From assembly GCA_034226945.1 (NCBI GenBank), contig CP120460.1, positions 310,001 to 374,000 on the forward strand: 64,000 bases of DNA. Direction: 5' to 3'. Under the pieces are notes generated by a model. The model ran no database searches. It was given only the letters and a program-made list of their open reading frames with translations, and was not told the origin of the DNA. How positions within the stretch are numbered: the first letter of the stretch is position 1; each line of letters opens with the position of its first letter. This DNA comes from Picochlorum sp. SENEW3 (Eukaryota). The position numbers and the translations under genes were made by a program. Shown piece by piece: positions 8,214-64,000 of this stretch.

Positions 8214-9297
8214 TCAAGTAGGCCTCATGTGAACAACAAGATTCTGATACTCGTCTTGGAGATGGTCTGGAACGAGATCAGCCACGGTCATAAGATCGAA
8301 CGGGGGTTCACGAGAGCCATGGATACTCTGTTGTAGCTCCTCCGAGCTGAGAATGGGTTGGCGAAATGTAGCTTTGAACCCACCCTTGGCATCCACAACT
8401 GCCTTGGGGGGTCCCCTGGCAACGGACACCCAATGCCCGTGTGCTAATTCATGCAAATGAAAGGACCATTCATCCCTTGGACCGTTTCCTTCTATCCATA
8501 CAGTCGCTGTATTTGTATCATCGCAGATCTCAAATTCAATCTTGCCGAGATCATAGCCAAGTCCCATTCCAGTTGCCTTGACAAATGCCTATACCATGGT
8601 ATGGATACAATTTTATGTCATAGTACTCAAAAACTATGCGTATATCATGATGACATACCTCTTTGAGACTCCAGAATTGAGTAAACCGACGCTCCATGGC
8701 CTCCACTGATGTCTCTGATTCATACACTCGCGCCCATTCTTTCCTTGTAAGCTGCCGCTCAAAGGCACGAAACGTCTGTTTCAGCCCCTCTACTGTGCAC
8801 TCCTCGTGATCCTTCTTCCTTCGAATAGATCCCGGAGACGATATATCGCATCCACATATACAAACACCTTCTGACGCCACGACCACGTAGTGCCCATCAT
8901 GGCTCGAACTAAAATTAAAGTTTGGGACAGCATCCCACACAGCTCCTTCTGGCTCACAGGGACCAGTCGTCACCACATATGGCTTGCCCCCCTTGGTCGT
9001 ATCCATTGTAATACACTTCAAATCATCATGACTGTACTGAGATGGCGCCACATGCTTGAACAGTCGCATCCCAAGAGATCGTTGCAAAAGCTTACTCACG
9101 AGAGCCCGCTTCCTATCTGCCTCGAATCGAAACTTCCTACATTTGATCTCTTCCTCTTTTTGAAGTAGATGAGAGCACAGAAACGTGAATTCTTCCTCAC
9201 TTGGCGTCCACCTAGAGATATCGACCCCCCATCGACAGGTCGCCCAACACCCCGTAGTCAATGGACTCTTCTTCGAGGTCGGAAAAGAATTCGTCAT
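8214..9297 (-). CDS. Sfp/AASDHPPT-type 4'-phosphopantetheinyl transferase; exons 9297-8659 and 8588-8214
   Basis: TTKGGKPY, FNFSSSHDG and GCDIS motifs; FWSLKE|AFVKATGMGL is restored by intron GTATGT..TATAG at 8658-8589. Confidence 0.9.
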
Positions 9298-9773
9298 GGT
9301 TATACGTACGTAGTAGTAGTAGGATATATATACTATTATTACTTAAATTATTTATTTGTGTATACCTACAAAAGAAAGAAGGCCATGGTGTTGTTGATCA
9401 CCTCGAGGAGGAGGAGAGGTTGTGGGTACCCAGATGTCACTGACAATTGGACTGCTTCGAGACCAGTCATCTTCTGCCTGGGAATGCTCATCAATTGGTA
9501 GTTGGCCAAGACCCATATAAAGATGCATCTAGGCATGAAGAAAGAAGACACCAAACTGGCTGGGTGATTGAGTGAGTGAGTGTACACTCAGCTCCATAGT
9601 ATATACATATGGGGATGGCCATCGATGGCCAATTCCATGTATATGGAATGCACAGAAGTGGCGCCTTCAGTCTGCAGATCTGCATTGGCCACCGATTTCA
9701 CAAGACACCTGCATGATCGCTTCACTTCATTGGAGAATTTTAAATATTCATCTGAAATAAATATTCAATCAAC

Positions 9774-42581: not shown

Positions 42582-44787
42582 TTATTCTGAGGAAGGACTG
42601 ACCGTAAGCTGTGGAAGGAGAACACCGTCGATGACAAAAATCTGTCCATTGGACGCTGGAACTGTGTCCAAGATATTGATCACCTGGCCTGAACCGTCCG
42701 TCACAGTGGATCCGCTCACATCAATTGTGGCTCCCTGAAGGGTGGTCACAACGCCACTCAAAGGAGTGTCGCAGGAGGCACCATCGACGACCACATGGTA
42801 GGACAACACCTGAGCCAACAACTCGGTATCGGCGAGGAGCTCTTCGGCGGTGATGCCCAATGCAGCAAGAAGGTTGGCAAAGGCCTGGTTGGTTGGTGCA
42901 AACACATCCAATGGGCCCTCGGCAGACAAGGCTTCCACAAATCCAGCAGCCTGCACAGCAGCCACCAAGGTGCTGAAGTCTGGGTTTCCGGCAGCAATCT
43001 CAACAATGTTTTCGGTAGCGTCGCATACTCCCGTGTCTCCCTCTGGGGCTGGGGCCTCCGCGGTGGGTGGCTCAGGGACAGGCTCATCGCCTCCTGGAGC
43101 CTGTGGAAGGAGGACACCGTCGATGACAAAGATCTGTCCATTGGAGGCGGGTACAGCAGCCAAAATATTGATAACCTGACCTGCGGCGTCTGTCACAGTG
43201 GATCCACTCACATCAATTGTGGCTCCCTGAAGGGTGGTCACAACGCCACTCAAAGGAGTGTCGCAGGAGGCACCATCGACGACCACATGGTAGGACAACA
43301 CCTGGGCCAACAACTCGGTATCGGCGAGGAGCTCTTCGCCAGTGATGCCCAATGCAGCAAGAAGGTCGGCAAAGGCCTGGTTGGTTGGTGCAAACACATC
43401 CAATGGGCCCTCGGCAGACAAGGCTTCCACAAATCCAGCAGCCTGCACAGCAGCCACCAAGGTGCTGAAGTCTGGGTTTCCGGCAGCAATCTCAACAATG
43501 TTTTCGGTAGCGTCGCATACTCCCGTGTCGCCCTCTGGGGCTGGGGCCTCCGCGGTGGGTGGCTCAGGGACAGGCTCATCGCCTCCTGGAAGGAGAACGC
43601 CATCAATGACAAAGATCTGCCCATTGGACGCTGGAACTGTGGCCAAGATATTGATCACCTGACCAGCGGCGTCCGTCACAGTGGATCCACTCACATCAAT
43701 TGTGGCTCCCTGAAGGGTGGTCACAACGCCACTCAAAGGAGTGTCGCAGGAGGCACCATCGACGACCACATGGTAGGACAACACCTGGGCCAACAACTCG
43801 GTATCGGCGAGGAGCTCTTCGCCAGTGATGCCCAATGCAGCAAGAAGGTCGGCAAAGGCCTGGTTGGTTGGTGCAAACACATCCAATGGGCCCTCGGCAG
43901 ACAAGGCTTCCACAAATCCAGCAGCCTGCACAGCAGCCACCAAGGTGCTGAAGTCTGGGTTTCCGGCAGCAATCTCAACAATGTTTTCGGTAGCGTCGCA
44001 TACTCCCGTGTCGCCCTCTGGGGCTGGGGCCTCCGCGGTGGGTGGCTCAGGGACAGGCTCATCGCCTCCTGGAAGGAGAACACCGTCAATGACAAAGATC
44101 TGCCCATTGGACGCTGGAACTGTGGCCATGATATTGATCACCTGACCAGCGGCGTCCGTCACAGTGGATCCACTCACATCAATTGTGGCTCCCTGAAGGG
44201 TGGTCACAACGCCACTCAAAGGAGTGTCGCAGGAGGCACCATCGACGACCACATGATATGACAACACCTGGGCCAACAACTCGGTATCGGCGAGGAGCTC
44301 TTCGGCGGTGATGCCCAATGCAGCAAGAAGGTTGGCAAAGGCCTGGTTGGTTGGTGCAAACACATCCAATGGGCCCTCGGCAGACAAGGCTTCCACAAAT
44401 CCAGCAGCCTGCACAGCAGCCACCAAGGTGCTGAAGTCTGGGTTTCCAGCAGCAATCTCAACAATGTTTTCGGCAGCATCGCATACTCCCGTGTCTCCCT
44501 CTGGGGCTGGCACATCGCCTGCTGGTGATGGTGCCATCTTGTGGTGGGACCACCACTTGCCCCATGCCGGCCATGCCTTGTGATGACCAAAGGAATTCAG
44601 GCTCCTCGTCGCCCCAGCCATCGCTGGAGTTGCTGCACAATCAAAGAGCAATATTATATGAGCACATAGATCTTGAAACCGAATTTGTCAAGTGGACAAT
44701 AAGAGAACGTGTCAAACCACACGTGGGTGCCCACATACCTGCACCCACAAGTGCTGCAACAAGCATCAAACTCAGTATGAACTTCAT
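42582..44787 (-). CDS. Secreted fasciclin protein with four FAS1 domains and Pro/Ala-rich linkers; exons 44787-44739 and 44632-42582
   Basis: Signal exon MKFILSLMLVAALVGA; FSTLVAAV, VFAPTNQAF (H1), LSYHVV, ASNGQIFVIDGVLLP (H2) four times. Confidence 0.95.
42611..44510 (-). repeat. Four near-identical 483-492 bp tandem units (FAS1 domains)
   Basis: Identical shadow ORFs start at 42850, 43342, 43825 and 44308 (spacings 492, 483, 483). Confidence 0.95.
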
Positions 44788-56944: not shown

Positions 56945-58090
56945 CTAAAGACGCAGAGGCTTGCCTGGAGGCAAGGCATATGGTGCAACACTACTACCTG
57001 CCGAGTCTTTGAATCCCACTCCCTCTCGAATGAGCCTAGATAATGTCACTTCTCTAGAGAACACTGCTGTATCACGTTTCATATACGGCGTCGCTCTTCT
57101 CGATGCACTCTTATGTTCTTGCAATGTTGCAAACACGCGAGCTGGATTCTTTCCTCGAGAAGCCACTCGTCTGCCATGATCTGGAAGAGTTCTGAACAGT
57201 GGAGGGCAACTTGAGGGCCTCTTCATTTTCAGCGCAGGTCCGTATTTCGAAAGATCTATCGAAAAATTATCACTAAATCGAACAATTCGAGCAGTCGGGT
57301 GCTGCGTGGCATCGACTGTGTCTGGAGAAAGAGAGAGTGCAGCTTCAGGAGTTGCAAAAGTTACCCTTCTTGCCTGTTTTTTTGCCATCACAGTATTTGA
57401 TCGGACGGCTTTACCAATTGACTTTGCTCTGTCTACACGGCCAGACAAGGACTGTTCCTTTTTCAACCTTGGTTGTCGCTGCTCAGACGACAGACCTTTT
57501 GAGCCTGCTGACGCTGGCGTCAGCATCAATCCTGGAGAAATCGCAGCAGGGGTCTCACCAAGAACGACAGATTTTTCTTTCACAAGTGCCGGTGTTTTCT
57601 CTCCATACATTGGTGAACTCTCTTTCGCCAAATTCTCAACACGTGGCGACAATTTTGCAACATCACACTCCTTCTTCACTTCTTCTTCTTCTTCTTCCTT
57701 GACGTGTTCTTCCTTCTTCTCCTTGGCAGGCTCTTCATCTGCTACGGGTAAGCTTTCCTTGGCAGGCTCTTCATCTGCTACAGCGACATTCTCCTTCGTA
57801 ACATGTGCCGGGAGCTCTTCTGGCGGTATATTTTCCTTGTTACTCTCATCATACGCCTGTGTGAGCTTCTTTGACGTCTTCTTCTTCCTGGGCACTACAG
57901 TCTTCTGCGCAACAGCCGCCAAAGCTCCACTCCTCCTCTTCCTCCCACCCACACGATAATTGACAATATCCTCAAAATCATGCATCGCCTTCTCCCCAGG
58001 AGGATGCTCCTCTACCCTGGCATCCCAGTTCCATGGCATCAACCTCCGCAGCTCCTTCAACTGCCTCTCCGCTTTCTTGGACGACGACAT
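56945..58090 (-). CDS. Hypothetical disordered protein with KEN box, RVxF motifs and many S/T-P sites
   Basis: 381-aa ORF; NKENIP, RRVTFATP, RIVRFS; VADEEPAKE occurs twice. Confidence 0.7.
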   Translation of the reverse strand: MSSSKKAERQLKELRRLMPWNWDARVEEHPPGEKAMHDFEDIVNYRVGGRKRRSGALAAVAQKTVVPRKKKTSKKLTQAYDESNKENIPPEELPAHVTKENVAVADEEPAKESLPVADEEPAKEKKEEHVKEEEEEEVKKECDVAKLSPRVENLAKESSPMYGEKTPALVKEKSVVLGETPAAISPGLMLTPASAGSKGLSSEQRQPRLKKEQSLSGRVDRAKSIGKAVRSNTVMAKKQARRVTFATPEAALSLSPDTVDATQHPTARIVRFSDNFSIDLSKYGPALKMKRPSSCPPLFRTLPDHGRRVASRGKNPARVFATLQEHKSASRRATPYMKRDTAVFSREVTLSRLIREGVGFKDSAGSSVAPYALPPGKPLRL

Positions 58091-59016
58091 GACGAGAAAT
58101 AATGCAGAAGCAACTATCTATAAATAAATAGTAAATATCCTACTATGCTCTGACGACGATGGCGCTGTTTTCGTTCCCAACAGCCAACCAACGACCTCGC
58201 TCAACAACCACCGTGGTCCTCGTCTACACAATATCACACAGACACGTTATCAATCTTCTCTGTAGGTGTTATAACAGGTAATTGGATACCTACCGAAAGG
58301 AAACAAGCTAGCAGGACTGAATACCAAGACTGCGCGATGAATGGTTGTTAGGCCAACAAGTTTTCGTTGGAAACTGCGTTTGTACCTTATATCAGTTCTA
58401 CGCAACTATATGCACAGATATGTACCGCAGAATAGTACTAGACCGGTATATTTGTAGATGAAATTAAAATTTTGGAGGATGTGTCCGATATTCCAAGCTT
58501 TGATCTCACACGGATGCGAGGTATGGAAGATCTAGATCTTTATCATAAAGAGCTTAATTAAGGTATGGTATTGAGGAACCAGATGTTGGTGTTCCAGGCT
58601 ATATATAATTGGGAGGGTGGCGTACTCTGGCCTGCCTTGAGGCATTTTCTTGGCGTGGAGATGGAGGAGGTTCCAGAAGGTCTAAACGGCGATAGCCTTA
58701 CCTTTGCTGACAATGGTATCTGTTTGGGGGACTGGGCCCTCTGTATAGTACTTCAATTTGTACATGTAGTTCTGCCTCTGTCAATGGCATACACCGCCCT
58801 GACGCAGATGAAGAGCTATTATTTGTATGTACAGATAGATTTGAAGGTTTACAACTTAAATTTAAGATTAATTTTTTCGATGCCAACTTCCTTTGATTGA
58901 TTCGAATGTATGAATTCATTTAATGTGGACAATAATATGTAAGCTGATATTGCATTAAATTGGTAACCCCATTGAGTATGGAACTTACCATCATGACAGT
59001 AAAAGAGTTCTCAAAA

Positions 59017-62000
59017 TTACGCCTCTGATTCCATCCATGGGCTTGCTGGCATACCCCCACCCCATATCCAGCCAGCATGCATAATCCCTCCAGGTAAAAC
59101 TGTGGATGCAGGAAGCAGGCGGCTTCCTTCTTGCATCGTGACTTCTGGCATCACTCGAGAGCCTACCTGTACCCAGGCTTGCTTTCCTACAGTAGTGGGG
59201 TGATATTTGAACTTAAGGGTCTCCAAATAGTGTCCTTCCACTGTACATCCACCCTCTACGACAGCACCATCCTCAAAAGTCACAAGGTCCCTTTCTAAAG
59301 GCAGACGCTGCAGAAGAACAACCCCTTTTCCAACAGTAAAACCTATAATCCTTGTCACAAATGACAAGAATGGAGTGCCGGCGAGAGGGAGGAATTCAGT
59401 TGCTGACAAAAGTCCATGAGCAACCATTGTTGGCACAGAGAACACTTGTCCTTCACCTGCTTTCCAGCGTGACCGAATGCCACAAAGAAGCGATAATACA
59501 CGAATCCATAGCGCTGCAAGCACGAAACCAAATCCTTGTGCTCCTATGAAGGTGAACACCGCTCCTGCATAGTGCCCAAAATCCAATACAACTATGGTGA
59601 GCAGGACTGGGCAGAACCATCGAAGAATATACGTTACTGGAGAGAGGAGCCAAAGAGCTGTTATTATTCGGAGTGAATACCATACTCTAGATTCAGCTCT
59701 ATCATCGTCTAAAAGAGCCAAGATCGCCTTGTCAGGTTCCGTTCTGTATTGCATGCTTCCTTGTTTGCGGGTCAAATCTGGTATGTGGGTACCTGAGGCC
59801 AGTGCTGAGTCATTCCCAAGGACGCTCAACTTACCTAGACTTGATCCTCCATAAAGAACTGCGCTATTACCTATAGTCGCTGCAGGGGATACAGAGACTT
59901 CCCGGACAATTCCTTCTCCATCAATATTTCTGATGGCTGATTCACTGCCTGAAGATACTGCTCCAGATATATTGATTGTATCAGGCAAATCCATATCGAG
60001 TCCTCCAACGAAACAAGAGTTTCCAATTTTGGCGCCAAGATTTCTGCATCATAATTTTCGAGATGTCCTTACCATGTACCTGGATCCATGCAGATAAGAA
60101 GAAAAATTTCACAAAGAGTAACAAACCTGTAAAACCATGACATTATGGGTGTAGAGCCGCATATTGATGCAAAGAGTTCAGTGAAGCTGTCAGAAATCAG
60201 TCTGCGATACAAGGAGAACCTCCAGGAGAGTGAAGAATTGGCGGCAATTCGGGTTCCAGGTGTGATGCACCTGAGTGCAACAGTCTTGAAGAACACAACT
60301 ATGGCTACCTGGAACATCCACCCGAGATGCAGCCCGAGGTAGTTGAAATATACAAAAAACAGAGAGATAACACCTAGAATATCATTCTTACCACCATCTC
60401 TATCCCCAAACCTCAGTTGCAATATCAGATCGAATGGATTACCTCCAAGGGTTACTCCAACGAGAGCAAACCCTACGACAATAGCAACCAATGATGATAA
60501 AGAATGAAGGAACATGGACACGAATGAACATGTGAGATTGCTTAGTTCCCCAAGATGTTGTTCAGGCATGAATTCCGGACAGTCCTTAAGATTGCCTGGC
60601 CCAACCGCATTTTTGTGCGCCGGAGAACTACGTGGCTTCAAATGTGTTCTATCCACCAACCTTCCTCCTGCTGGAAGGATGGCACGGTGGCCAACTTCAC
60701 AGTGACTCCCAATTATCACAGTGGAGAACATAAGTACTGGAGCATCTCCGAACATTCCTGCTGGAGCAATCATGGCAGGAGAAGCATTGACATGCCTTCC
60801 AATCTTGGTGCCTTCTCCTATCTCCACCAGACCAGGCTCGTGTATGCTGACTGTATCGATTCGTGCTCCTGCCCCAATCTTCGCTCCTAGGCATCGATAA
60901 ACACAATTAAAGGTCGATGTCTTGCAGAAGAAAGTATATAATATACCTAAATTCTGCGATTGCAATGCTCGAGCAGTTGTCCAGCGACAGTGGACCCAAC
61001 CATAAAGAGGATGGACACCAGGGCTCATTCCAAAGGGGAAGAGGATTCGGTGGAACAGCAGGAACACACAAATTTGCAAAAAGATACCTGCGAGGAAAAA
61101 TGGAGGCCAAAGCAGAACAAGCCAGCCCAAGTTCCATCCAGCACGGGTAAGAAAAACCCATCCTAGGTATTGTCCAGCCCATGGCAAAATTGGCAATGTC
61201 TCAACTAGAACTAGCAGCAAATACTGAAAAACGATATACAGTGGAAATGGGAGTCTAGTCGCCGCTGGGTGGGTGCCCAAACGATTTGATAGATCGGGAT
61301 CTTCAGCATTTAGATGGTGAAGCATTTTCTTGTTCAGAAACGTGGTAGCTCGTCTCAATAAGGATGCGGATGATCTGCCCCGACCTGCCAGCCATGCATA
61401 CTTGAAGGAATTTGCTGTCCTGCCTTGAACTTCCTCTTGGCGCAGAAATTCGGCTAAAAGGAAAATTGTAGGGTTAACAAATAAAGCATTAGACGGCAAC
61501 ACTTTCAGCTCTAGGGCATCCCGAATTCGAGCCTGCACCACCCCAGCTTTCAATGAATTGCCTCCTAATGCAAAGAAGTCAGCATGAATTGAAATAGGTG
61601 CATCTAAAGCCAGCACGTCAGCCCATATGTCCAAAAGTGTCTGCTCCAACTCGTCAAGGTTTTCCTCACCAGGTACTGGGACTGTCAAATCCCATTCAGG
61701 CTGCGGCAGTGCCCTGACGTCCACCTTGCCATTGGGCTGCAACGGAAACGCATCCAGAGCAACAATTGTGCTGGGAACCATGGCAGCCATCAACAGCGAC
61801 CGGCAGTGGCTCAAGACCAATTGCACATCCAAATCTGCAGGGCACACGTACCCAACCAAGCGCTTCTCTCCAGACGGATCTGCCATCGCACACGCCACGG
61901 CTTGCGCCACGCCTGCAAAGGACTCTAAAGCGGACTCCACCTCGCCAAGCTCGATGCGCACGCCCGTGATCTTCACCTGGCGATCGATGCGCCCAAGGAA

Positions 62001-64000
62001 CTCCAGGCTGCCGTCGCTACGCCAGCGAACAAGGTCGCCAGTGCGGTATGCCTTGCTGTAAGAGTCAGACAGAGAAGCATGGACTCGCCCCTCCACAAGC
62101 CCCAGGCATGGGTTGTCCACGAACGACTTGGCGGTCAGGTCGGGTCGGCCACAATATTCAAGCGCCAACCGAGGGCCGCTCAACAGCAGCTCGCCAGGGA
62201 CGCCAAGGGGTAAGGGGCGGAGGGACGAGTCAACCACGTACGCATGCATGTTTGGGTCAGGGCGACCGATCACCACCATGTCAAAGCCACGGGGGAAACG
62301 GTGGTGGGTCCCAGCGACCGTCGCCTCGGTGGGACCGTACGCGTTGTGCGGGCCCTTCATGTTAGGAAACACCTCTTGCATCTCCCGCACAAGATGGGCG
62401 GGCACCGACTCCCCTCCCAAGCCCCAAGACTGCATGGCACCATACGGAGCAAAACCCAGCCTCTTCATGGAACTGACGTACTCGAGGGCCAAAGTGGGCA
62501 CTGTGACCAAAAACGTGGTCACCTGATGCTCCACAACCGTCTTAGCAATGTAGTCAGGATCCAAGTGACCCTGGGGGCTGGCGACGATCATGCACGCCCC
62601 AGCGACGAGAGGCGGAAACAACTGGTACAACGAAGCATCGAAGCAGATGGTGTTGGACAGAATGGACACGCTGGTGGTTCCCAAGGCATACTCGTCGACG
62701 ATAAAATGAGTAAAGTCCCGCAGGCCCCGGTGGGGCACCGTCACGCCTTTGGGTCGACCTGTGGACCCAGAGGTGAAGATGATGTAGGCGGGGTCCTCCG
62801 GACCGGCAGCAACAGGCCTGTCGACCGACAGCGTCCCCGAGCCCCCATCGTCCACACTCGACAAAACCCGGTTGACATCCAAGATGATCACAGCCCTCCC
62901 ACTCGCTGCAGCCATCGCCGTGGCGCGATCCAGATGGGCCGGCTCCGTCAGCAGGAGGGACGAACCAGCATCCTCCACATACACTGACAGGCGGTCGTCA
63001 GGATACGAGGGGTCGCAGGGCAGGTAGCAGCCCCCAGCGGTCAGGACTGCCAAGATGGTGACAACAAGCTCCAAAGAACGGTCCAGCATCACGCCCACTA
63101 CCACGCCAGGGCCCACGCCGTGGACGCTCACCAGCCCCGCTGCCATGGTGCAAACCCAATGGTACACCTCCCCATACGTCAGCCGTTGATCTTGGAACAA
63201 CAGGCACTCCAGGTCGGGGTGAGACACTGCTATCGCTGCAAACGCTTCGTACACCAAACCAGCATCGGCATACTCAGCACGCTGCTCGCCCATGCACTTC
63301 TCAGCCAACTGTATGGATTGGTCAAGACTCAACAGATTTGTCGATCGCACCTTGGCGTGCATATTGTCCACCATGCATGTCAGAGCGGTCTCGAAGATGC
63401 TGTAAAGACTCTGGATCGTTTGAGAGTCGTATATTTCAGCCATATACTCCATTTGAAGCACAGAACCAACAAGCACTGCTGTTACATCTGCTTTGGCTGT
63501 TGCTTTGAGCTCAACGTGCTTGTGCTTTTTTCCTGTCATCTGACCAAGGACAAGTTCTCCAATAGCACCTGGATCGCGGGTGGGGTCCAGGTACTGGAAA
63601 AGGCACTGAAACAATGGATTGGCACCAGGGACACGCGCAGCTGGGCTGGAGGCAATAATTTCCTGAAGAGGAAGTATTGAATGAGACAGAGCAGCTATAG
63701 TTGACTCACTTGTAGCTCGAATCATATCCTCAAAGGTAGATGAGTCAGAAATAGAGCATCGCACGGGCACAGTGTTGATGAAATAGCCAATTAATCCATG
63801 AGTTTCAGGCTGATCACGACCTGCCGTCGGCACACCTACCACGACCTCATCATCCCCACTTTGCAACAGCAAGGCCAACTGGAAAGCAGAAAGAAGAACA
63901 GCCTGCATATTGACACGCAGTCTGCGTGCGAGTGCCTCGACTTGCTCCAATAAGCCATCAGGAAGATGCAACACCAGTTGACGACACTCGTATGTGGGAT
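59017..64000 (-). CDS. Non-ribosomal peptide synthetase, 5'-truncated: C-A-T plus a Pls/PosA-like membrane terminal domain; exons >64000-60127 and 60043-59017
   Basis: C: VVVGVPTAGR..LIGYFINTVPVR. A: YIIFTSGSTGRPKG, NAYGPTE, YRTGD, GRIDRQVKITGVRIELGEVE, NGKVD. T: DFFALGGNSL. Three TM + LGAKIG-type hexapeptide units follow. Intron GTTTGT..TGCAG restores WFYR|NLGAKIG. The frame is open to the window edge. Confidence 0.92.

Follow-up and report, generated by a model that had tools for sequence, protein, structure and literature searches.

Near the end of the 64,000-nucleotide stretch of DNA analysed here (the window), the minus strand carries two long open reading frames, one at 60069-63998 (1309 aa, open at the window end) and the other at 59017-60048 (343 aa). 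Removal of an 83 nt intron, with the exons joined by script, yields a spliced CDS of 4899 nt spanning 59017-63998, which encodes 1632 residues, is open at its 5' end and stays in frame with a sole, terminal stop. The features along it are, from its upstream end:

63309..63998, minus strand: NRPS condensation (C) domain, C-terminal half, residues 1-230 (PF00668 and relatives)
61720..63450, minus strand: GC3-rich island, adenylation domain and preceding linker (GC3 profile)
61725..63230, minus strand: adenylation (A) domain, complete, residues 257-758 (PF00501 and PF13193, TIGR01733)
61443..61643, minus strand: carrier (thiolation, T) domain, residues 786-852 (PF00550, E 2.7e-9)
60127..61232, minus strand: tail part 1, with helix pairs 1-2, beta-helix unit 1 and the start of unit 2 (TIGR02353, hydropathy, match to the relative P0003)
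60044..60126, minus strand: intron, 83 nt, GT (60126) to AG (60044) (sequence, in-frame CDS, homology)
59017..60043, minus strand: tail part 2, with beta-helix unit 2, helix pair 3, unit 3 and the stop (TIGR02353, Hexapep 27.3 bits)

The splice junction runs from ...TGGTTTTACAG through the intron, GTTTGT...GATGCAG, into AAATCTTGG, and interrupts codon 1291 (AG/A), the Arg of the unit-2 motif YRNLGAKIG. The intron has a GC of 0.36, and once it is removed P0003 aligns gaplessly over the exon joint. It is unchanged in DNA contigs of two further data sets (X1, piece 60023-60358, and X2, piece 59825-60176, 0 differences each), both of which read straight through it; the intron call is thus based on homology and on these contigs, not on RNA. 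A sequencing frameshift in place of the intron was rejected, because the exact 83 nt removal restores the gapless alignment and the same 83 nt recur unchanged elsewhere. No contig joining the exons at 60044-60126 was found in four of the 12 runs listed (X1 and X2, probably DNA, X4 and X5), a negative that does not amount to absence of splicing. The metatranscriptome X4 holds a relative, 90-99% alike and covering 27 of 30 bins, whose contig follows exon B and from 60054 continues into unlike sequence, not exon A, while X5 gave two short pieces, exonic only. The sole joint listed, 62345 to 62761 in X4 (side 23), was set aside as it looks like a repeat or foreign contig.

The host contig carries eukaryotic, photosynthesis-related genes alongside the NRPS gene, among them a PsbP-like neighbour whose nearest cluster is labelled Chlorophyta; the NRPS gene itself adjoins an ABC1 kinase, a glutaredoxin and an unknown Lys/Glu-rich ORF. 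The first-pass annotation had taken the intron as proof of a eukaryotic gene, with which the in-frame joint, the gapless homologues and the eukaryotic contig agree.

Concerning base composition, the island has a GC3 of 0.65-0.80 against 0.23-0.62 across the remaining gene, and it is the GC-richest 1500 nt in the window (0.611 vs a mean of 0.464, sd 0.031). The A domain has a GC of 0.606 and a GC3 of 0.709, compared with a GC3 of 0.409 for the tail and about 0.41-0.48 more generally, and the non-A parts of the gene have a GC like that of the eukaryotic genes of the contig. The island may reflect natural A-domain exchange or concerted evolution within the NRPS gene. The gene could also be a decaying or silent one, of bacterial origin and no longer yielding a product, or else bacterial contamination or a mis-assembly, a reading that would fit the island, the unseen spliced RNA, the small RNA-library shares (X4 0.07, X5 0.05) and the best full-length A-domain matches, which are bacterial NRPSs at 33-43% identity. 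We consider it improbable, given 4899 nt that lack internal stops and retain the catalytic motifs of the A domain, T domain and tail, the contiguity with eukaryotic genes of shared GC, the intron in independent DNA contigs, the X4 relative, and the presence of the stretch in sequencing runs from 6 studies under four organism labels. The signature motifs of the clade described below point the same way: a pattern-limited search of 185,579 prokaryotic species genomes gave 40 matches with the exon-B protein and 17 with a 3-row alignment, none of them a relative. Viral contigs gave 76 pattern matches and likewise no relative.

Condensation, adenylation and carrier domains

The C half, A and T domains lie in one frame, upstream of the Pls-type tail. 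PF00668 matches residues 3-228 with profile positions 223-452 of 456 (E 2e-28, Pfam), so that the condensation domain noted previously is present, with its C-terminal half only, because the window ends there. No HHxxxDG occurs in the visible part, the expected place of the motif being upstream, past the window end. This half and its counterparts in the fragments P0236 and P0192, both HHxxxD-bearing, align at 48-49%, and HHxxxD is kept in the C domains of six of the eight relatives checked (P0236, P0192, P0180, P0162, P0017 and P0025); the other two, P0042 and P0137, lack it at the C-domain position, their match to the C profile being confined to its C-terminal half.

The A domain is complete, as had been claimed, with AMP-binding (PF00501) at residues 257-615 (E 5e-75), AMP-binding_C (PF13193) at residues 686-758 (Pfam), a TIGR01733 (amino-acid adenylation domain) score of 354.3 bits vs a cut-off of 317.4, the full set of core motifs and an intact ORF. 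Fragments P0180, P0192 and P0236 match part of the A-domain query at 55-66%. The phosphopantetheine-bearing serine of GGNSL in the carrier domain was confirmed as codon TCA at 61554-61556, residue 815. Pfam scans of both exon pieces found no thioesterase or reductase family after the carrier domain, in agreement with the first reading.

The membrane tail and its relatives

Beyond the carrier domain, the tail shows six hydrophobic helix-like segments arranged as three pairs, each followed by a hexapeptide-repeat (predicted left-handed beta-helix) segment; the three-unit layout proposed earlier therefore stands, with six helices by hydropathy and all three quoted hexapeptide strings found. In the spliced protein the pairs lie at residues about 916-941/956-992, 1155-1189/1207-1247 and 1417-1448/1450-1482 by hydropathy, that is, at about 61176-61253 and 61023-61133 (pair 1), 60432-60536 and 60258-60380 (pair 2), and 59572-59667 and 59470-59568 (pair 3), with the stop codon at 59017-59019. 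Beta-helix unit 1 carries YRCLGAKIG..., and tail part 1 shares 40% identity with P0003 over 99% of the query. Similarity between the units is weak: unit 1 matches unit 2 with E 1e-6, and the other two unit pairs are not significant.

The tail is a homologue of the Pls/PosA polymerising domain. The exon A part matches positions 1-348 of the 695 of TIGR02353 (E 3.5e-20, 71.9 bits) and the exon B part runs up to profile position 692 (E 5.5e-30, 104.3 bits), so that the match is collinear, yet both values, scored as two separate exon pieces, are far under the curated cut-off of 423.1 bits, and by the NCBI criterion the tail is not a Pls/PosA member. The Pls-type assignment made earlier thus holds for the order of the match and not for its score, which suggests that the function of the tail may have diverged. 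Whole-tail scores of clade relatives are 123.9 (P0003) and 168.4 (P0018), those of canonical tails 641.6 (P0105) and 719.9 (P0158). PF00132 (Hexapep) gives 27.3 bits on exon B vs a cut-off of 27, and 14.8 bits on exon A; a PDB profile search returned 3ixc (E 2.2e-5).

The window retains the consensus at 36 of the 46 tail columns that are at least 80% conserved and differs at 10, the retained ones including the R..G motifs of the three units, GT1513-1514, E1541, D1543, H1562, E1565, W1618, G1621 and P1623. His1562 (codon 59230-59232) and Glu1565, both in unit 3, occur as His in 97% and Glu in 88% of 104 tails. An AlphaFold model of the whole tail of P0003 (32-row alignment, mean pLDDT 82.8, pTM 0.83) predicts three helix pairs, each followed by a short-strand beta-helix. 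The Foldseek matches listed were all hexapeptide-repeat proteins, the acyl-ACP-dependent LpxD first, and they are weak (none at E <= 0.001, best 1.4e-3).

The tail phylogeny proposed as a check on the first-pass annotation was built on 104 rows. It places the window together with P0003 and P0162 (SH-aLRT 100), within a clade of 8 rows (SH-aLRT 100), i.e. with seven other representatives, which stands apart from a 70-row clade of mostly A-T-tail proteins, the canonical architecture. The window protein is collinear with its relatives through C-A-T-tail (P0017, 29% over 1281 columns; P0012, 31% over 1332; P0025, 31% over 1304). Both complete members of the clade (n=2: P0017/P0165 and P0162) are A-T-C-A-T-tail, and therefore the gene is probably bimodular; the NRPS had been called multimodular, and P0017 and P0162 do carry an upstream module, two modules in all being the most likely number. 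A search for the upstream part in metagenome contigs by protein patterns matched 111 stretches, of which 11 were confirmed, all generic C domains at 27-36% identity and no close relative. A word-indexed search found no longer fused forms of the tail among 1616 candidates. Elsewhere in the wider family, proteins carry fused tailoring enzymes, for example P0137 with a carboxylesterase, P0124 with amine oxidases and P0157 with an FMN dehydrogenase, which suggests varied chemistry.

Substrate pocket and product release

The A-domain pocket code, extracted by script, is DAYVGGAVAK, which resembles a tyrosine code, a likeness from which no substrate is called; the pocket code strings had no match in the literature searched. 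Position 239 is Tyr in the window and Glu in all three bacterial-type A-T-tail relatives compared (P0004 DMEHNGTVTK, P0005 DGESVSVVNK, P0006 DMEHNGTVSK), so the acidic residue for a diamino acid at this position is absent from the window pocket. As a control of the mapping, P0005 gave DGESVSVVNK vs DGESISVVNK as printed in a passage of PMC10522769. According to the same source the diamine substrate of PosA requires Asp217 and Glu221, Glu221 being essential (PMC10522769); the matching window positions hold Asp and Tyr. With an acidic residue missing from its pocket, the enzyme is unlikely to make a cationic isopeptide polymer of the Pls kind.

This bears on whether the gene could simply encode an ordinary Pls/PosA-type synthetase whose product is a cationic homo-poly(amino acid), epsilon-poly-lysine for instance, the C piece being a relic or another gene's. 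The like topology of the tail, its collinear TIGR02353 match and reports of eukaryotic homologues from fungi, Amoebozoa, Metazoa and Alveolata (PMC10522769) speak for it. Its probability is nevertheless very low in our view, as a single open frame spans the C half, A, T and tail, the relatives have complete HHxxxD C domains and a first module, the tail scores under the cut-off and outside the canonical clade, and Tyr stands at 239.

Our preferred explanation, to which as a whole we give about an even chance, is that the locus makes up the last 4.9 kb, at the 3' side, of a nuclear gene from a photosynthetic eukaryote, probably a chlorophyte, that its product would be a membrane-anchored NRPS, and that the tail would release the dipeptide from its carrier to a free amine, possibly more than once. 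The full protein would have two modules, the second loading an uncharged, probably bulky amino acid, and the C domain would assemble a dipeptidyl thioester on the final carrier domain. As a putative pseudo-trimeric acyltransferase, the tail would use His1562 and Glu1565 of unit 3 to activate the amine of an acceptor that diffuses freely and would attack the thioester as in Pls. Since the released unit would again have a free N-terminal amine, repeated addition is the most likely outcome, which would yield either a polyamide or short (AB)n peptides, synthesised at the membrane and perhaps moved across it; single transfer would be the second most likely. Dipeptidyl thioesters may also leave as diketopiperazines or via hydrolysis, without polymerisation. 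It should be noted that, if both A domains load the same residue, it is unclear why a polymerase would need two modules, which counts against this explanation.

Transfer could also be a single-turnover release, in which the carrier-bound (di)peptide is handed once to a non-peptide membrane acceptor (a lipid head group, polyamine, sugar or water), the product being lipopeptide-like or amide-capped and not an oligomer. We hold this to be possible if rather unlikely. The conserved six-helix, three-unit layout of the polymerases, with its His/Glu pair, argues against it, and the adjoining genes named above include no evident acceptor maker. In its favour, the closest solved folds are acyl-ACP/acyl-CoA transferases acting once per acceptor (LpxD, LpxA, GlmU, and serine and maltose acetyltransferases), the tail clade is separate and far under the Pls/PosA cut-off, the A-domain pocket is uncharged, and the tailoring fusions of the wider family suggest varied chemistry.

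Returning to the preferred off-loading onto a free amine, its furthest form would be that a eukaryotic lineage, the alga and a handful of relatives, joined a two-module NRPS with a membrane polymerase of Pls type, the polymerised unit being an enzyme-built dipeptide and the product an alternating (AB)n polyamide, formed at the membrane of the alga and perhaps exported there. We regard this form as doubtful; if true, it would be a ribosome-free route to repetitive peptides that is not described in the papers searched. The tail is a candidate domain for engineers to polymerise enzyme-built peptide units, and the gene points to an undescribed membrane-associated peptide or polyamide in a photosynthetic microbe.

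Comparison with known systems

A C-A-T NRPS closed by a Pls-related membrane tail in a photosynthetic eukaryote is a layout not described in the papers searched: among the papers listed, no title or abstract start points to a tail of Pls type that follows a C domain or occurs in an alga, and no paper came up for TIGR02353. Pls-type tails are so far the polymerising end of single-module enzymes for antimicrobial cationic polymers, and a conserved clade in which such a tail closes a two-module, C-domain assembly line would add an off-loading logic to NRPS enzymology. Pls of Streptomyces albulus consists of A and T followed by six membrane helices around three tandem soluble segments, with no TE, and its donor is carrier-bound while the acceptor is free and the chain is not covalently held (passages of PMC9205021). 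The window tail resembles it in being collinear with TIGR02353 and in retaining the best conserved unit-3 His/Glu. Where Pls has one module and no C domain, the relatives of the window gene have a whole first module, and the window gene itself includes a C domain; its tail pieces score 72 and 104 bits vs the cut-off of 423, where canonical tails reach 642-720; its pocket is without an acidic residue for a diamino acid; and the gene is intron-containing, in a eukaryotic host.

Few algae have NRPSs (7 of 32 species, PMC4661987). Table 1 of that survey counts, for Chlorella variabilis and Coccomyxa subellipsoidea, chlorophyte NRPSs that have a single C domain, the number expected of A-T-C-A-T-tail, and the passages compared here do not describe a terminal membrane domain in them (PMC4661987). 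Algal NRPS products are essentially unknown.

For PosA, the delta-poly-L-ornithine synthetase of Acinetobacter baumannii, the modelled tail has three five-turn left-handed beta-helices packed with approximate three-fold symmetry on six bent helices (PMC10522769). The accompanying survey was restricted to proteins of 1100-1800 residues; the groups it names are bacteria, cyanobacteria, archaea, fungi, Amoebozoa, Metazoa and Alveolata, and its main text contains none of the words alga, Chlorophyta and Viridiplantae (PMC10522769). The predicted P0003 model has an element order that matches the PosA tail model. A eukaryotic member of the family, the epsilon-poly-lysine synthetase of the fungus Epichloe, was reportedly presented by Purev and coworkers in 2020 and is said to be a Pls-type single-module enzyme; the window gene differs from it by its C domain and its tail clade.

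Finally, the tail is like LpxD and LpxA in its predicted left-handed beta-helix fold, the Foldseek top match, 6p83_B, being weak (E 1.4e-3, prob 0.98, TM-score to the query about 0.1). In LpxD and LpxA the acyl group comes from a phosphopantetheine-bound donor and a His at a subunit interface serves as the base, and by analogy acyl transfer of this type is the likely working principle of the tail. Unlike these soluble homotrimers of one chain type, the window protein has three diverged units and six membrane helices in one chain.

Gene structure, putative intron and host

The NRPS gene lies on the minus strand at 59017-63998, in two reading frames separated by a putative intron, and carries the following features.

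Features of the NRPS gene, with Pfam matches given by residue
63998 to stop 60069-60071, minus strand: frame 1, open at the window end, 1309 codons
60048 to stop 59017-59019, minus strand: frame 2, 343 codons
60044-60126, minus strand: putative intron, GT(60126)..AG(60044), 83 nt, GC 0.36
Residues 3-228: Condensation (Pfam), profile positions 223-452 of 456
Residues 257-615: AMP-binding (Pfam), E 5e-75
Residues 686-758: AMP-binding_C (Pfam)
Residues 786-852: PP-binding (Pfam)

The condensation (C), complete adenylation (A) and carrier (T) domains of the first-pass annotation are all matched by Pfam, and the adenylation model TIGR01733 is passed as well (354.3 bits, cut-off 317.4). Since the condensation match starts at profile position 223 of 456, the window holds the C-terminal half of the C domain, the remainder lying past its end. 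The carrier serine of GGNSL is residue 815, and its codon, 61554-61556, is the one first assigned; as also first read, neither thioesterase nor reductase families are listed in the Pfam scans of either gene piece.

The two frames meet at ...TTTTACAG/GTTTGT...GATGCAG/AAATCTT. Without splicing, frame 1 stops 18 codons past the junction; excising exactly 83 nt restores the frame and leaves the alignment with P0003, a database protein with a related tail, gapless over the joint, which sits within the conserved R.LG motif of the second tail unit. Joining the exons by script from their coordinates yields 4899 nt in frame, with the terminal stop as the only one, and 1632 residues. The 83 nt are identical in contigs from two further data sets, the sequencing runs X1 (60023-60358) and X2 (59825-60176), and are therefore no assembly error; these best-matching runs are probably DNA. 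The RNA check, covering 4 of the 12 runs listed (X1, X2, X4, X5), gave no spliced RNA across 60044-60126. The metatranscriptome X4 holds a relative, 90-99% alike, that covers 27 of 30 bins and whose contig at the exon-B border continues with 87 letters unlike exon A, and the oligo-dT run X5 gave two short exonic pieces only. Because spliced RNA was seen in none of these four runs, we infer the spliced intron claimed at 60044-60126 from the restored frame and the P0003 alignment.

Concerning the genomic setting, Pfam families in 21 of the 27 other long ORFs, which are packed nearly gap-free, correspond to eukaryotic housekeeping and photosynthesis-related genes, among them PsbP-like, glycolate-oxidase-type FMN dehydrogenase, SDA1, DNA ligase I, NSUN2, SAH hydrolase and ABC1 kinase. 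For the PsbP-like protein, the nearest Atlas cluster carries the label Chlorophyta and the second-nearest Streptophyta, the former label being a lead to a green-algal origin, not proof of it. Sequencing runs from six studies, filed under four coded organism labels, contain the stretch. A green alga is a plausible host, and, with these neighbours on one side and the outcome of the RNA check on the other, a silent or foreign gene appears improbable.

Other ORFs of the window, all on the minus strand, deserve mention. At 8551-9342, 50 kb from the NRPS gene, an ORF matches AASDHPPT_N, the 4'-phosphopantetheinyl transferase N-terminal domain (E 2.3e-19); this kind of enzyme is required for priming NRPS carrier domains. 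A major-facilitator/OATP-like transporter ORF (457-2061) is too distant to be a cluster partner. Adjoining the NRPS gene is a Lys/Glu-rich ORF of 390 codons (56945-58117) with no Pfam family at E <= 1e-5, and a gene with four fasciclin domains (42582-44687) ranks second in the window for GC richness (GC 0.57, GC3 0.57).

The membrane tail and its relatives

The tail, comprising the last ~770 residues, matches TIGR02353, the Pls/PosA terminal-domain model, in order: exon A over profile positions 1-348 (E 3.5e-20, 71.9 bits) and exon B up to 692 of 695 (E 5.5e-30, 104.3 bits). By hydropathy, the tail has six helix-like segments, arranged as three pairs with a hexapeptide-repeat segment after each, and together with the Pfam scans this agrees with the three units of transmembrane helices and hexapeptide repeats first described. 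The units are faintly alike, units 1 and 2 matching at E 1e-6 and the remaining pairs not significantly. A profile search for solved structures retrieved nothing past small hexapeptide-repeat proteins; 17 sequences came in at E <= 1, with 3ixc ranking first (E 2.2e-5). The whole tail of P0003, which shares 40-48% identity with the two pieces of the window tail, was modelled in its stead from a 32-row alignment (mean pLDDT 82.8, pTM 0.83); in the model, each of three helix pairs leads into helices and a series of short strands. Foldseek found no match to it in the PDB at E <= 0.001, and the matches listed are all hexapeptide-repeat proteins, headed by a weak one to LpxD (E 1.4e-3, prob 0.98). 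The P0003 model agrees with that published for the PosA tail, in which, according to the passages available, six bent helices carry three beta-helices related by approximate three-fold symmetry (PMC10522769). The window tail retains 36 of 46 columns conserved at at least 80%, including, in unit 3, His1562 (97% conserved) and Glu1565 (88% conserved).

HMMER searching with the tail profile returned 1222 representatives at E <= 1e-3, 386 at E <= 1e-10 and 26 at E <= 1e-30. In a quick IQ-TREE phylogeny of 104 near-full-coverage tails (LG+G4, SH-aLRT support only), the window clusters with P0003 and P0162 (support 100) within an eight-row clade (support 100) that also hosts P0016, P0017, P0018, P0025 and P0170. 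Its sister is a 23-row clade with the Diplonema ambulator protein P0042, and a 70-row clade, chiefly of ~1300-residue A-T-tail proteins, stands separate from both. TIGR02353 scores track this split: against a cut-off of 423.1, P0105 and P0158 of the canonical clade reach 642 and 720 bits, whereas P0003, P0018, P0043 and P0148, on the window's side, score 124-219. The tail was first assigned to the Pls type; the ordered profile match bears this out, but the score falls under the cut-off and the tree places the tail outside the canonical clade.

P0017, P0012 and P0025 align collinearly with the window protein from C through A and T to the tail (29-31% identity, about 1300 columns). Both complete clade members, P0017 (with P0165, 2520-2524 aa) and P0162 (2710 aa), are built as A-T-C-A-T-tail. 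A Condensation match occurs in 5 of the 24 long matches scanned (P0012, P0017, P0025, P0042 and P0137), none of which belongs to the canonical clade, and HHxxxD is present in the C domains of six of the eight relatives checked. The fragments P0236 and P0192, nearer to the window (48-59% identity), run from the end of an A domain through T and C to the start of another A domain; their C halves align to window residues 1-240, and both their A pieces to the window's single A domain. The simplest reading of these alignments is that the window gene would extend upstream to complete the C domain and add a first A-T module, the two A domains of its sub-lineage being, on this reading, close paralogues. 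The first-pass observation of an NRPS with a Pls-like tail is confirmed, and its reading of the architecture supported.

Other tail-bearing proteins show further arrangements. P0042 and P0137 open with a C domain of which only the C-terminal half is present (profile match starting near position 195), with no HHxxxD there, and their pocket code, GIWTICLMTK, starts with Gly in place of Asp235. Fusions of Pls-like tails in the databases also bring in unexpected partners. In P0137 a carboxylesterase follows the tail. Elsewhere the tail is fused to a phosphopantetheinyl transferase (P0074), an FMN-dependent dehydrogenase (P0157), an ODP metallo-beta-lactamase-type domain (P0089), DUF418 (P0086) or an HGSNAT-type acyltransferase (P0156), and P0124 has amine oxidases where the A domain would be.

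Adenylation pocket and GC3 island

The ten pocket positions were taken by alignment, the control P0005 giving DGESVSVVNK where DGESISVVNK is published for a Methylomarinum enzyme (passages of PMC10522769). The window A domain reads DAYVGGAVAK. Position 239 is Glu in all three bacterial-type A-T-tail relatives coded and Tyr in the window, and the matching Glu is essential in PosA, according to the same passages (PMC10522769). Apart from the Asp at its first position, the window pocket holds no acidic residue. With this Tyr and an otherwise non-acidic pocket, a cationic isopeptide polymer appears an unlikely product, and a canonical Pls-like role, to which the ordered tail match would point, is highly improbable. 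Pocket codes vary among clade members (DAMSFGGIFK, DPADLGTVVK, DARHGGSVSK), even Asp235 being missing from the first-module A domain of P0162, so that products probably differ from species to species.

Within the gene, codons ~190-260 to ~760 have a GC3 of 0.65-0.80, a jump from a level of about 0.3-0.5. The high-GC3 span (61720-63450, minus strand) is exactly the A domain plus its preceding linker, and it has the highest GC of any 1.5 kb in the window (0.611 vs a mean of 0.464, sd 0.031). GC3 of the A domain, 0.71, exceeds both the 0.41-0.48 of the C, T and tail parts and the values of the 27 other long ORFs, which all fall within 0.39-0.57. An X1 contig follows the window over 62850-63295, with 4 differences, before diverging into 229 unlike letters; this break at 63295, near the upstream border of the island, may reflect a second, paralogous A-domain copy. 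Among the pieces listed, mismatches between the window and the X1 and X2 contigs are commoner inside the island (23 in 2231 nt) than outside (5 in 2595 nt). The island, together with the signs of paralogous A domains, suggests GC-biased gene conversion between two A domains; alternatively, the A domain may have been replaced by one from a GC-richer donor.

Proposed chemistry and comparison with known systems

Hexapeptide-repeat acyltransferases use a thioester donor, and a His at the beta-helix interface activates the nucleophile. In Pls, as described in passages of PMC9205021, the carrier-bound amino acid is the donor and freely diffusing lysine or oligomer the acceptor, the chain never being enzyme-bound. 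By analogy, the C domain of the window NRPS would assemble a dipeptidyl thioester at the final carrier domain, and the tail would hand it to a free amine. Since the released product would regain a free N-terminal amine, repetition is chemically possible, and repeated addition to that amine would give (AB)n chains. That the tail performs such aminolysis, with repetition as the leading sub-case, we hold to be an even call; one-shot transfer to another acceptor is a more doubtful candidate.

The PosA paper, in the passages available, places homologues in fungi, Amoebozoa, Metazoa and Alveolata, its survey being restricted to 1100-1800 residues, and its main text there makes no mention of algae (PMC10522769). 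An algal survey gives, in Table 1 and the text, one NRPS with one C domain each for Chlorella variabilis and Coccomyxa subellipsoidea, and zero for Bathycoccus, Ostreococcus and Micromonas, with no mention, in the passages available, of a membrane tail (PMC4661987). The titles, abstract starts and passages of the literature searched gave no account of a Pls-type tail that follows a C domain or occurs in an alga. Given this and a layout like that of Pls/PosA that departs on three tests, we regard the gene as a previously undescribed variation on the Pls/PosA theme: it resembles these enzymes in layout and, by analogy, probably in chemistry, and differs from them in its TIGR02353 score under the cut-off, in having a C domain and in lacking the acidic pocket residue.
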